Source: an uncultured Dehalococcoidia bacterium | GTDB taxonomy: Bacteria > Chloroflexota > Dehalococcoidia > Lucifugimonadales > Australimonadaceae | DNA length: 64,000 bases | Reading direction: 5' to 3' | Assembly: GCA_937901475.1 (NCBI GenBank) | Contig: CALGTL010000162.1 | Coordinates: 64,948 to 128,947 of the forward strand | Shown here: positions 12,145 through 27,335 of the stretch, in pieces | How positions within the stretch are numbered: position 1 is the first letter of the stretch | How the letters are laid out: every line of letters starts with the position of its first letter | Notes under the pieces: model-generated | What the model saw: the letters and a program-made list of their open reading frames with translations, nothing else | Told to the model about the DNA's origin: nothing | Databases searched by the model: none | Program-made: the position numbers and the translations under genes

Positions 12145-12549
12145 CTACCCCTTCTTGTCCGCAAGCCTGCGCTCAGCGAACACTTCACTCGCGCAGCGAA
12201 GTCCATTCAATGCTCGCGGCAACCCCAGATACGAGATGCTCTGGACAAACATCTCCGCTACTTCCTCTGCCGACCATCCCGCGTTCAAGGAGTACCCAAC
12301 GTATGATTTAATTTGCGGCTCCACGCCCAACGCCGTCAGCATCCCTATAGTCACTGCGCAACGGGTCTTGATATCCAGTTGCCCGCGGCTCCAGATCTCA
12401 CCGAAGTTGATACCCAAGGCATAATTTTCCAGCTCGGGCACCAGATCAAACCCCGCAGAATTCGACGCGCTCCGAGGGCTAGCACTATCGCTCAAAACCT
12501 CACGAACCCGGCGCCCCTTCTCTTTGCTCTCTTCCGAAATGATCATCAT
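12145..12549 (-). CDS. Carboxymuconolactone decarboxylase (CMD/AhpD-like) family protein
   Basis: NFGEIWSRGQLDIKTRCAVTIGMLTALGVEPQIKSYVGYSLNAGWSAEEVAEMFVQSISYLGLPRALNGL follows the PcaC-type CMD domain pattern. Confidence 0.75.
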   Translation of the reverse strand: MMIISEESKEKGRRVREVLSDSASPRSASNSAGFDLVPELENYALGINFGEIWSRGQLDIKTRCAVTIGMLTALGVEPQIKSYVGYSLNAGWSAEEVAEMFVQSISYLGLPRALNGLRCASEVFAERRLADKKG

Positions 12550-23992: not shown

Positions 23993-24132
23993 GCAACCCC
24001 CATGAGTCACACCAGGCAGAGCCGGATGTGGCCGGATTCAAGTTGTACTAGCTTCGCAAGCATATTGCACCCGCAGCAGGTCCCCATTGTAGCGCTCAAT
24101 CTACTACTACCCATTCCCTCTAGCCTTAATCA

Positions 24133-24162
24133 GAAGAACTCCCTCTATAGAGGGAGTTCTTC
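24133..24162 (-). terminator. Perfect 13-bp hairpin downstream of the alcohol dehydrogenase gene
   Basis: GAAGAACTCCCTC-tata-GAGGGAGTTCTTC, about 170 nt 3' of the stop at 24332. No strong U-tract on either strand. Confidence 0.4.
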
Positions 24163-24331
24163 ATTCGGTGAAATAGAGCTAAAAGACGTCAGTTGCCATC
24201 GCTTCGCAATTACTTGATTTCTTGCCAGTTCTTCAGTGATTCTGAATTCACCTTTTTGTTCTTCCCTAATCCTCTCTTAATCTCATGTCCAGTCCCACTA
24301 TGGGGAATATCCCCAAATTGCCAGAGCGAGT

Positions 24332-25450
24332 TTATTGCCAGGGATGAACTGACACGTGGATAGCGTCCGTTATGCCCTCTCCGGCAACCGCCCGTATGGC
24401 GATATCGACGTCCTTCAGGCCGAATGTGTGCGTGCGCATCTGCTCCAGAGGGAATCGATGCGATGCGATGATCTGTAATCCCTTTTCCACTGCGTCAAAG
24501 CTGTGGCCCCGGGCGCTCTTCAGTGTCATGTATTTGCGCGTGAGTCGCCCGATCGGAAAGTCGGGAAATAATGGGGTCTCCGCCTGCGCCACCATGATGC
24601 CGCCCTTGCGCTTCGTCGCCTCGACCGATAACAAAGTCGGCGCTATGCCTGCGTGTGACGTGCAATCGACCACCGTGTCCACTCCCGCCTCTGGGCCACC
24701 ACCAGTTAGCTCTTTAATCCGCTCTAGCGGGTCTTCTTCCTGAACATTGATTACCACGTCAGCGCCCAGAAGCTTCGCAACCTCGAAGCGCTTCACGTCC
24801 TTGCTGGTACCTGTAACTATGATTAAGTCCGCGCCCGCCTTCTTGGAGGCGACAACACACGCCAGCCCTTGCTGCCCTGGACCCTGAATAAGCACTTTGC
24901 TACCGAAGCCCGCCTGCCCCTCCATAAGCGCCCACTGCACGCCGTTGCCCATCGGCAAAGCCATCGCTGCTTCTTCGGCATTCACACCTGCAGGGATTTT
25001 GTGCAATGCAGCGTTGGGCGGGATGAACAGGTATTGCGAGTACCCACCCCAAAGCGACGGCGCAACATCTACCGAAGTCGAACCATAGCGAATTGCATTG
25101 TCGTTTGCAGATGAATCCGTCGCAAAGCAGTGTCGATACTCGCCGATGCGACAGAATTCACAGTAGCCGCACGGAAGGTACTCCTCCAGCGCGACCATGT
25201 CTCCTTCTTTCACGTCCCAACGATCAGCAAACACGCGGCCCACCTTGATCAGGTAACCCACGTTCTCGTGACCCATCACAACCGCTCCGCCCTTCATGTG
25301 TCGGTGGTACCCACCGACGTCACTGCCTCAAACGCCCGCGACTTCAACTTTCATCAACGCTGCGTCTACTGGAATCTCAGGAAGCGGAATTTCTCTAAGT
25401 TCAGTCTCACCGGAGGCAATCTTTGCCGCCACTAACGCCTTATCAGCCAT
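24332..25450 (-). CDS. Zn-dependent (MDR) alcohol/threonine-dehydrogenase-like oxidoreductase with one in-frame TGA at the catalytic Cys codon (candidate selenoprotein, or nonsense pseudogene)
   Basis: ATG 25450 (GAAGAGG 7 nt upstream) opens ...[36 protein letters not shown]... The frame continues without shift into ORF 24332..25297. GHE and structural-zinc [15 protein letters not shown] are intact, and the Rossmann motif [11 protein letters not shown] is present. The TGA lies at 25330..25328. Confidence 0.7.
25300..25318 (-). promoter_or_regulatory. SECIS-like hairpin 9 nt 3' of the in-frame UGA
   Basis: Minus-strand RNA GUCGGUGG-GUA-CCACCGAC, a perfect 8-bp stem (or 7 bp with a GGUAC loop). 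The apical loop lies about 17 nt after the UGA. Confidence 0.35.
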
Positions 25451-25901
25451 TCTTGTACCTCTTCAAGCCATTAATGTCCGGCACATGCACCGGTGTTTCG
25501 AGCAAGATACGCTGCACCTAACCCTAGGTCAACGCACTCAACTCCATTGCGTGGTCGGCTAAGTCGGCAACGGTAGGTATCCTATCGTCCCCAAGCAGAG
25601 TTTTACTTAGGCCGTAAATTAACTTGCCAAACCGCGCCTACAAAATCCAAGAACTATCTCGAACCGGTAAATATAAGCACCATATCAGCGCTCCCTCTCA
25701 TCAAGGGTCATACCATATTACTTCCAGCCTCAGTAACTACGAACAATTCGCCATAGCGCTGAATCCGTAATTCCACCAGCAACAAAGCAACAGAGTATGA
25801 ATGGAGAACGACGATTTGGCTTCATAGTGCCAGAGCACTCACGGTATCGCTCTCTACAACCGTTCGTATCTCAACCGCATCCGTCATAATTAATACCTAG
25901 T

Positions 25902-26294: not shown

Positions 26295-27335
26295 CTAGGC
26301 TTCCAACCCGAAATTGCCTCTCCATACCATCTCGATCCGTGCCATATTTGCCTCAGACAAAGGACCGCGGCCAGAGGCGGCTGAATTCTCCACAACCTGC
26401 AGAGCATCCGAAAAGCCACCCAGCACTGATGACACTCCCTCTAGTGACAGCACGTAGCGGAGTGCCGCCTGGGCCAAATCGTGGTCGTCTTCCTGAGTAT
26501 CTGGATGTAGGTTTTTCGACAGAAAAGCAAACTGCCGCGCTTGGTGACGCCCGAGCGCACCAGATTCAGGCGTACGCACGCCATACCCCATCGGGTGCGG
26601 GTCACCACCTGACGCACCATCATCGCTCAAGTACCAGCTGGCCAACGGGCTATATACCGCTGCCCCAACACCATGAGCATTTGCGTATCCCAGGATTCCG
26701 CCCCAGTCTTGATTGACCCTCATGCCGTTCGGCAACCCCGCCGCTGACGGATTGATTAGATTCACAGACACATTAATGAGATTGAACATCCCCGTGTCTA
26801 TCAGTTGCCGCGCTGCATCCGCATCATTCCCTCGTGTAATAAAACCTATGAAGCGCGCCTTTCCCGCAGCCTGAACTCGCTGCAACCCTTCAAGTGCTCC
26901 TCCGGGGCGCAAGTAGTCCTCAATCGACAGATGGGTGTACGAGCGGCCTTCCAGCTTAGGAGTGTGCATCACCGGACCGTTGTGAATCTGGACAAAGTCC
27001 ACGTAGTCCACACCGAGACGCTTCAAACTCTCATCAAGTCCGCGTTCCACGTGGCCAGCGATATCCCCGAGGTTCTCCTCGCGCACCTCAACTTTCGTCG
27101 TGATGTAGGGGCGCACGCCCAGCTGCTTCAGAGCTCACCCTAGGTTGAGTTCTGAAGTTCCATTGCCATAATCAGGCGCTTGGTCGAAATAGTTGATTCC
27201 AAGCTCTAATGCCCGTTCAATTGCCACAAGCTGCTGCTCAGCCGTCCCGCTGACCATTAGCCCAGCGTTCCCGCCGCCGCCGAATGCAATCTCTGAAACA
27301 CGAATCCCTGTATTACCAATCTCGCGATACTGCAC
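26295..27335 (-). pseudogene. Aldo/keto reductase interrupted by a single in-frame TGA (nonsense pseudogene or recoded gene)
   Basis: GTG 27335 (GAGGAG 5 nt upstream) opens MQYREIGNTGIRVSEIAFGG...NYFDQAPDYGNGTSELNLG-TGA-ALKQLGVRPYITTKV... The frame continues into ORF 26295..27116 (GVDYVDFVQIHN and later). TGA at 27137..27135. The total of 346 codons is a typical AKR length. Confidence 0.6.

Follow-up and report, generated by a model that had tools for sequence, protein, structure and literature searches.

In bacterial selenoprotein genes of the Escherichia coli fdhF/FdhA type, an in-frame UGA stands at the position where homologues carry a Cys, and a stem-loop follows just 3' of it, within the coding region. 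The metal sites in which selenocysteine (Sec) is known to take part are redox centres of Mo, W or Ni. The zinc-dependent enzymes among medium-chain dehydrogenases/reductases (MDR), for their part, hold the catalytic zinc by means of a Cys, a His and a Glu. The gene described here brings these two situations together. It was found in a 64-kb stretch of DNA from an uncultured Dehalococcoidia bacterium (contig CALGTL010000162.1; "the window" in what follows, always at its full length) and is predicted to encode a zinc-dependent MDR of the polyol/threonine dehydrogenase type, in which TGA takes the place of the codon for the catalytic Cys and a hairpin of the type of the bacterial Sec insertion sequence (SECIS) lies immediately downstream. 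The comparison of this gene with its relatives makes it very probable that it is a genuine, functional gene in which UGA is recoded as Sec.

SAR202 is part of the class Dehalococcoidia, and the genome records closest to the window are metagenome-assembled genomes (MAGs) labelled SAR202 cluster, Dehalococcoidia or Chloroflexota bacterium, with 88–94% amino acid identity. Of the ten largest selenoproteomes known from bacteria, two belong to Dehalococcoidia MAGs (49 and 46 genes; PMC13326102), and the Chloroflexota are known to carry Sec-type hydrogenases together with Sec translation factors (PMC4959059; PMC13582414). The window itself is ordinary chromosome, in which the genes for PurL, ribosomal protein L9, DnaB, leucyl-tRNA synthetase, GltX and electron transfer flavoprotein are accompanied by those of many catabolic enzymes.

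The UGA codon in the window gene and in its homologues

The gene occupies a frame of 372 codons on the minus strand, whose sole interruption is the TGA at 25330..25328 (Table 1), and its product is matched by the Pfam models ADH_N (PF08240, 7e-16) and ADH_zinc_N (PF00107, 5e-14), both over the gathering score. An earlier note on this DNA had located the frame, the Shine-Dalgarno motif, the ATG, the TGA and the hairpin, and all its coordinates and sequences are correct on re-reading. It had also described the GHE motif and the structural-zinc cluster as intact, as they are (H61, E62, C94, C97, C100 and C108 are all present), and it had placed the TGA at the catalytic zinc-ligand Cys, in agreement with the alignment, in which codon 41 falls on the Cys of the GxCGSD motif (GICGSDV in the structure 1e3j). 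Among the checks that it proposed were the alternation of TGA and TGC in related genes, the possibility of a base-call error and the selection acting downstream of the TGA, and the following comparison bears on all three.

The sample of genes with the TGA (lineage 1, or the Sec clade) comprises 21 loci at 83–95% amino acid identity, taken from SAR202/Dehalococcoidia MAGs and marine metagenomes, which amount to 16 distinct nucleotide sequences, 13 of them with complete genes. Codon 41 is TGA in all 21 loci (16/16 distinct sequences), and the layout of the gene is the same in every one of them: a Shine-Dalgarno-like motif, the ATG, 40 codons of MDR N-terminus, the TGA and the remainder of the gene. 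The motif before the start is of the GAGG/GGAGG type or a near variant (GAAGGT in locus L053) in each of the 16 distinct sequences, and the true stop is TAA or TAG, never TGA, in the 13 complete genes. The alternation does exist: TGA is fixed in this clade and recurs in the second lineage described below, and the 61 other homologous loci that were compared all have TGC or TGT at the same codon. Such is the case of the five Cys orthologues at 74–81% identity, of which four distinct ones from Dehalococcoidia/Chloroflexota were read at six loci, and which are syntenic with the Sec forms on the downstream side (a DNA-alkylation-repair gene, a gene of ~123 amino acids and a Tricorn/PD40 propeller gene), and also of 56 of the 56 more distant loci, from Acidobacteriota, Alpha-, Beta- and Gammaproteobacteria and others. 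At the protein level, position 41 is Cys in the 43 full-length homologues aligned (43/43) and UGA in the window gene. As for the reliability of the base itself, an independent assembly from another sample (ENA ERZ27050428, k141_644706), which matches the window with 99.93% identity along 2980 nt, shares both the TGA and the hairpin, and a base-call error is thereby excluded.

The divergence within the Sec clade is considerable, with a mean pairwise dS (synonymous divergence) of ~1.3 among the 13 complete genes, that is, with saturated synonymous sites. In the same genes the ratio of nonsynonymous to synonymous divergence (dN/dS) is 0.09 for codons 1–40 and 0.05 for codons 42–372, and the genes of the clade show no further lesions. 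Low dN/dS on both sides, combined with saturated dS, implies that both parts have been kept as protein-coding across a divergence of species level or deeper, and purifying selection of this kind is not what a pseudogene would show, nor a gene whose real end is codon 41.

Database records of the homologues at 83–95% identity lack the N-terminus (314–322 amino acids), those at 74–81% and below are full length (~370–373 amino acids), and truncated copies of the Sec form are present on at least 80 contigs among the matches listed. The truncated entries for the Sec forms are a systematic mis-annotation. Bar a few shorter fragments, these N-truncated entries (P0002, P0004, P0010-P0013, P0015, P0017-P0022, P0121-P0134, P0284, P0333-P0346) measure 311–322 amino acids, and the named ones are all called "threonine dehydrogenase-like Zn-dependent dehydrogenase"; the first 40–44 codons often appear as a tiny open reading frame (ORF) of their own.

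Table 1. Positions, in the window, of the predicted Sec-containing MDR dehydrogenase gene and of its elements.
Feature	Position	Strand	Details
Sec-containing MDR dehydrogenase gene (predicted), complete	24332..25450	minus	372 codons (M1...U41...Q372) + TAA
Shine-Dalgarno-like AAGAGG	25458..25463	minus	7 nt 5' of the ATG
ATG start codon	25448..25450	minus	40 codons before the TGA; start position kept in all orthologues
In-frame TGA, codon 41, putative Sec codon replacing the catalytic-zinc Cys ligand	25328..25330	minus	from homologue comparison
SECIS-type hairpin	25300..25318	minus	5' arm GUCGGUGG 25318..25311, loop GUA 25310..25308, 3' arm CCACCGAC 25307..25300
GHE motif (G60 H61 E62)	25265..25273	minus	invariant in 44 homologues; aligns with the GHE of 1e3j, 5vm2 and 4cpd
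Structural-zinc lobe C94-x2-C97-x2-C100-x7-C108	25127..25171	minus	from translation; C94, C97 and C108 invariant in 44 homologues
Rossmann-fold nucleotide-binding motif GPGQQG, residues 190–195	24866..24883	minus	all six columns invariant (44 homologues)
Genuine stop TAA	24332..24334	minus	from translation

The hairpin and a second UGA lineage

The hairpin starts 9 nt after the UGA and consists of a perfect 8-bp stem and a 3-nt loop, which begins 17 nt after the UGA. Its minimum free energy (MFE) is -12.5 kcal/mol when folded alone; the fold z-score is just -1.4 in a 71-nt context, and a qualifying perfect 8-bp hairpin follows 7 of the 2256 TGA trinucleotides present in the window in any frame (~0.3%). 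Given this modest chance level for a lone hairpin, the case rests on the comparison with relatives and not on the single sequence. In the Zhang and Gladyshev consensus model of bacterial SECIS elements (bSECIS), in the summary of PMC13188914, the apical loop has 3–9 nt, the upper stem 4–16 bp, the distance from UGA to loop is 16–37 nt and the MFE is -7.5 kcal/mol or lower, and the loop has a G in its first two positions, usually followed by G or U (PMC13188914). The hairpin agrees with every one of these constraints, with a loop GUA (G, then U), a stem of 8 bp, a spacing of 17 nt and the energy given above.

The relatives add a constraint on codons. Of the 253 columns with an invariant amino acid and scope for codon variation, no more than 9 show one codon throughout, and six of these nine are the consecutive codons 44–49 (D V G G Y H), precisely those that form the hairpin; other runs of single codons are no longer than two. 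Likewise, among all 364 seven-codon stretches of the gene, synonymous diversity reaches its minimum in the two that begin at codons 43 and 44 (0.022, versus a gene mean of 0.54). The Cys orthologues write DVGGY by means of varied codons (GGC/GGA/GGG, GTC/GTG, TAC/TAT) and have Glu, Leu or Ala at the position of His49, and in five of them the equivalent 19 nt fold with -4.1, -4.1, -4.1, 0.0 and -9.0 kcal/mol; the Sec forms, by comparison, give -12.5 or -11.9 kcal/mol. Two further observations concern the Cys forms: one orthologue (L099:5001-6122) has a different, imperfect and weaker hairpin at codons 45–51 (-9.0 kcal/mol), and several Cys homologues carry the peptide DVGGYRR.

Pairing tells a similar story. 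In 15 distinct sequences all 120 of the 120 pair cells are paired, one pair being changed on both sides and one by wobble, and shifting the 3' arm by 1–3 nt lowers the pairing to 25–62%. Inside lineage 1 the stem changes only by CGA to CGG, whereby a U-A pair becomes U-G, and in 4 of the 15 distinct sequences the sense RNA has U-G as its second pair; variants of this sort pair on the sense-strand RNA only, a point against both a DNA palindrome and an antisense element. Judging from these codons and pairs, the hairpin is held by a constraint at the level of RNA. The earlier note had suggested looking for conservation of the hairpin beyond what the amino acids demand and for compensatory changes, and both are found, the former in the frozen codons 44–49, set against Cys orthologues that spell DVGGY with other codons (four of five without a comparable hairpin), and the latter in one compensatory and one wobble-preserving change of the stem.

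An exhaustive search of representatives brought up, among the N-truncated relatives, a second, deep-branching UGA lineage (P0136, P0284, P0333; 24 members in the 90% cluster), which has ~64% amino acid identity to the window protein and sits on contigs of 1.1–3.1 Mb. Its DNA (L101-L110, for example L107:9824-10951) displays a Shine-Dalgarno motif, a GTG start, 40 codons and TGA, followed 9 nt later by the hairpin GUCGGCGG-GUA-CCGCCGGC, with -13.4 kcal/mol. With respect to lineage 1, the sixth pair has gone from U-A to C-G; of the two substitutions involved, GGU to GGC is silent and CAC to CGC exchanges His49 for Arg. The pairing of the stem in lineage 2 has, by this comparison, been kept at the cost of an amino acid change.

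In neighbour-joining (NJ) trees lineage 1 is monophyletic in 39 of 50 bootstraps and nested among the Cys orthologues, and the two UGA lineages group together in none of the 50, which means that Sec arose twice or reverted to Cys several times, with the proviso that NJ trees built on ~370 columns are not decisive for the number of gains. The region of the DVGGY peptide seems predisposed to SECIS-like structure, and a Sec form that originated twice could be accounted for in this way. On balance, we lean towards the proposal that the Zn-selenolate alcohol/polyol dehydrogenase of SAR202 is the first natural enzyme with Sec ligating a catalytic, redox-inert zinc, and that the swap has arisen at least twice in one MDR subfamily through a "pre-adapted SECIS", because one or two substitutions suffice to turn the coding sequence of DVGGY(R/H)R into a SECIS hairpin.

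Competing explanations and the search for further recoding

A TGA in a reading frame can, of course, have other causes. One of them is a one-step change from TGC or TGT in a pseudogene or through a sequencing error, the hairpin being coincidental, and it can be said in its favour that such a hairpin follows ~0.3% of TGA trinucleotides by chance and that the adjacent aldo/keto reductase (AKR) gene does hold a lineage-specific nonsense TGA. It is nevertheless barely conceivable for a TGA that is fixed in 16 distinct sequences with saturated synonymous sites, flanked by dN/dS of 0.09 and 0.05 with no further lesions, and shared by an independent assembly and by a second lineage; a dead gene would not keep 40 upstream codons, a start, a Shine-Dalgarno motif and a hairpin, and the saturated dS excludes that all the contigs are one clonal sequence. 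The UGA could also be a true stop, with a 40-residue peptide and/or a truncated dehydrogenase re-initiated at Met52 or Met59 as products. Gene callers do predict the N-truncated product (315–322 amino acids, on at least 80 contigs among the matches listed), and ATG52 is present in 15 of the 16 distinct sequences. However, codon 52 is CTA (Leu) in L053, neither Met52 nor Met59 is preceded by a Shine-Dalgarno motif, and the product started there would be devoid of the catalytic ligand and of the first three GroES-like β-strands (strands 4–12, 15–22 and 31–40 of the AlphaFold2 model). Codons 1–40, moreover, are under purifying selection as an MDR N-terminus, and the stop at codon 41 is always TGA, never TAA or TAG, while the real stop, at the end of the gene, is TAA or TAG in every case, all of which makes true termination at codon 41 very unlikely.

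Recoding of the UGA to a residue other than Sec would be compatible with a functional gene, either as SECIS/SelB-dependent insertion of Cys by a Sec-like tRNA or as near-cognate readthrough (Trp or Cys) stimulated by the hairpin. Sec-like tRNAs charged with Cys reportedly exist in some bacteria, according to work by Mukai, Vargas-Rodriguez and Soll; sequence data alone cannot tell Sec from Cys at a UGA, and the genes for Sec biosynthesis are not located in the window or in the fetched flanks. Against this, UGA read as Cys would offer no evident gain over the ancestral TGC, kept by all the neighbouring lineages, a Trp at the zinc-ligand position would inactivate the enzyme, contrary to what the strong purifying selection indicates, the hairpin conforms to the bSECIS model, which is specific to Sec, and the class Dehalococcoidia includes selenoprotein-rich genomes, so that insertion of another residue appears unlikely; that the residue inserted is Sec is what we infer. 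The conserved palindrome, in turn, might be an element of the DNA or of the antisense strand, such as a protein-binding operator, unrelated to decoding, since GTCGGTGGGTACCACCGAC is a perfect DNA palindrome. But the U-G second pair of 4/15 distinct sequences breaks the DNA palindrome and leaves a C-A mismatch on the antisense strand, and the element is present in UGA forms only, always 9 nt from the UGA, which renders this explanation extremely improbable. Sec recoding, as the earlier note had read the locus, is the interpretation favoured by all the tests that were run on these sequences.

Several results weigh against Sec recoding. The covariation is thin (one compensatory and one wobble change, with six of the eight pairs never varying), and the conserved DVGGY peptide by itself favours part of the hairpin sequence. 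Of the check by SECIS predictor or covariance model proposed in the earlier note, the part that stood is the agreement with the bSECIS constraints; no Rfam SECIS family matched in 25200..25460 at E <= 10, as was to be expected, because bacterial SECIS elements are heterogeneous. A look for selA, selB, selD and tRNA-Sec in the 64-kb window and in flanks of up to 21 kb around related loci yielded none of them. ARAGORN detected no tRNA-Sec in the window and 30 related loci, where the only tRNAs were those for Glu, Gln, Ser and Ala, and the scan of the window at Rfam gathering thresholds returned four tRNAs and no non-tRNA family. Pfam scans of 50 window proteins showed no Sec machinery among their housekeeping and catabolic functions; as a candidate for SelD, the sole AIRS-domain protein among these was rejected, since according to Pfam it is PurL.

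The AKR gene mentioned above (26295..27335, minus strand), located 1 kb upstream of the dehydrogenase gene, provides a negative control. It has a single in-frame TGA at 27137..27135 (…GNGTSELNLG*ALKQLG…), at whose position an Arg codon (CGC or CGT) stands in the intact orthologues L049-L052, with no special conservation downstream. As a second selenoprotein it was rejected on the grounds of these Arg codons and of the lack of conserved downstream structure, and the Arg in the orthologues implies that its TGA is a lineage-specific nonsense mutation (a pseudogene or a strain variant), a base for which the independent contig L100, which stops 22 nt before it, gives no cross-check. A different in-frame stop, at a position that is Tyr in the window, was seen in the AKR orthologue L080:2-394 (…GSAV*SPLAS…). 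These data suggest that decay of the AKR gene is under way in several clade members, independently in each. The TGA of the dehydrogenase is unlike this nonsense case in every respect.

As regards the use of TGA in the window as a whole, the stop codons of the 54 predicted genes are TAG in 28, TAA in 16 and TGA in 10. Genome-wide reassignment of TGA is ruled out, given that it is the normal stop of 10 of these 54 genes. A stop pattern so rich in TAG and poor in TGA is unusual at 55% G+C and might have to do with a frequent use of UGA as a Sec codon. An all-against-all search for conserved in-frame TGA codons, directed at hidden selenoproteins in ~258 kb of SAR202 sequence, gave mostly off-frame conservation, and the interpretable cases from the window were two, the dehydrogenase (X versus X or C) and the AKR (X versus R). 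The TGA-flanked extensions of every window gene yielded nothing else convincing. In the window there is also a 134-residue protein of the carboxymuconolactone decarboxylase family (CMD/AhpD-like; 12145..12549, minus strand), encoded by an uninterrupted ORF. The CMD/AhpD-like family has known Sec-containing members, with a CxxU motif. In a related locus (L007:18659-19572), gene calling divides a homocysteine S-methyltransferase gene (PF02574) between two ORFs that overlap in different frames, a split that is probably due to a frameshift or assembly error and not to recoding.

The zinc site, the genomic setting and the place among known selenoproteins

By its sequence, the product of the window gene is assigned to the zinc-dependent MDRs of polyol/threonine dehydrogenase type. 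Its closest solved relative is the ketose reductase 1e3j (E = 2e-30), with position 41 matching the Cys of GICGSDV (Cys41 of that enzyme) and H61/E62 matching its GHE. The catalytic zinc ligands are Cys41/His66/Glu67 in 1e3j and Cys44/His69/Glu70 in human sorbitol dehydrogenase (SDH). C41, H61, E62, C94, C97, C108 and the GPGQQG motif (190–195) are invariant in the 44 aligned homologues, and the Cys/His/Glu set of catalytic zinc ligands is complete in the window protein only if Sec is accepted as the equivalent of Cys. The structure modelled was that of P0001, a Cys orthologue with 81% identity to the window protein (AlphaFold, pLDDT 91.5), and it matches sorbitol, ketose, idonate and threonine dehydrogenases (3qe3, 1e3j, 6dkh, 2dfv) with TM-scores of 0.8–0.9. 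No NCBIfam equivalog cut-off is reached (Tdh, TIGR00692, 120.9 bits versus 458; NF003808, 111 versus 380), and the label "threonine dehydrogenase-like" is therefore a matter of family resemblance only.

The neighbours of the gene differ between genomes. A Cupin_2 gene adjoins the dehydrogenase gene on its 3' side in L001 and L007; it codes for ~281–288 amino acids (L001:11097-11942, L007:11415-12281) and stands between the dehydrogenase and DNA-alkylation-repair genes, a place that in the window is taken by a gap of just 321 nt (24011..24331). A LigXa-type Rieske oxygenase gene comes next after the Cys orthologue in L095, and the lineage 2 gene is flanked by a LigXa-type Rieske oxygenase gene and a methyltransferase gene, in a cluster that also includes amidohydrolases, an ABC transporter and a molybdenum hydroxylase of the xanthine dehydrogenase type. 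Since oxygenase, cupin and amidohydrolase neighbours hint at the catabolism of aromatic or recalcitrant organic compounds, the setting in related genomes suggests that the dehydrogenase has a role in this catabolism.

If codon 41 is decoded as Sec, the product would be a full-length zinc-dependent MDR dehydrogenase of ~40 kDa. The hairpin 9 nt 3' of the UGA would serve as the bacterial SECIS and would recruit the complex of SelB, GTP and Sec-tRNA(Sec) to the ribosome stalled at the UGA, with the result that Sec is inserted and termination does not take place. In the folded enzyme the catalytic zinc would have the selenolate for a ligand in place of the Cys thiolate, alongside His61 and Glu62. 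We infer both the presence of the Sec machinery in the host and the binding of zinc by Sec. A selenolate has a lower pKa than a thiolate, is a softer ligand and can be oxidised reversibly. The benefit of the swap may lie in catalytic tuning or in resistance to oxidation; more specifically, Sec could bring gains in activity, in the tuning of the pKa of the zinc-bound water or alcohol, or in resistance to the oxidative loss of the ligand in oxic seawater.

No Sec-containing MDR was known to the author of the earlier note, and the literature concurs: Table 1 of PMC13188914, an inventory from 2026 with 119 families of prokaryotic selenoproteins, includes no MDR or zinc alcohol dehydrogenase, the paper on BSepDB (111 families) mentions neither alcohol dehydrogenase nor zinc, and the terms are equally absent from the deep-Sep and Global Ocean Sampling (GOS) analyses. 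A literature search that paired Sec and selenoproteins with dehydrogenases (alcohol, threonine, zinc, MDR) retrieved no description of such a protein, none of the NCBIfam selenoprotein models matches the window protein, and a natural precedent for a selenolate on a catalytic zinc was not found in the literature. The dehydrogenase would thus appear to be a new protein family among the bacterial UGA/SECIS selenoproteins, its odd feature being Sec at a ligand position of a catalytic, redox-inert zinc.

Were this to be the case, the MDR alcohol/polyol dehydrogenases, a large and classical superfamily, would join the selenoproteome, and the use of Sec would reach past redox catalysis to the tuning of Lewis-acid metal sites. 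The syntenic Sec and Cys orthologues (74–81% identity) offer a natural pair in which to look at the effect of Sec at a non-redox metal site, and the dehydrogenase family as a whole would be a compact natural model for the origin of selenoproteins, in which two lineages with a near-identical hairpin indicate that a SECIS can emerge from codons that the protein sequence already imposes. A selenium requirement in SAR202 is also implied. These bacteria are abundant in the deep ocean and have been linked to the oxidation of recalcitrant dissolved organic matter.

Compared with its counterparts that have Cys, such as 1e3j, sorbitol dehydrogenase (3qe3/1pl6), L-idonate 5-dehydrogenase (6dkh) and threonine dehydrogenase (2dfv), the enzyme shares the two-domain fold (as modelled for the Cys orthologue), the GxCGSD and GHE motifs, the four-Cys structural zinc lobe and the GxGxxG motif. 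It differs from them in that the identity is just 22–28% and in the UGA that the window gene has for the catalytic Cys; furthermore, the second-sphere Glu of human SDH (E155) is, in the alignment, Leu throughout the subfamily of the window protein. With selenoprotein genes that follow the bSECIS model it shares a small apical loop that opens with G and then U, as well as a spacing and a stability within the model, and it would share with FdhA the condition of Sec as a ligand of the catalytic metal, whereas the metal here is predicted to be a redox-inert, Lewis-acid zinc in place of Mo, W or Ni, and the hairpin is a minimal, perfect 8-bp stem without a bulge or a conserved lower stem. The [NiFeSe] hydrogenases, including the Group 4 variants predicted in Chloroflexota (PMC13582414), are also similar in that Cys-to-Sec replacement at a metal-ligating position has arisen repeatedly and that Cys relatives sometimes already have SECIS-like hairpins (PMC13582414), but they belong to another protein family, with another metal, and carry out redox chemistry at that metal. 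The nearest parallels for Sec as a metal ligand that does not cycle between redox states are the CobW-related UxxC selenoprotein, SaoB/SaoC, MbdU and the YHS-domain protein (PMC13188914, Table 1), for which such a role has been proposed; these proteins, in contrast, are concerned with transport, chaperoning or detoxification by means of CxxU/UxxC-type motifs, and none of them is an MDR oxidoreductase with a catalytic zinc.

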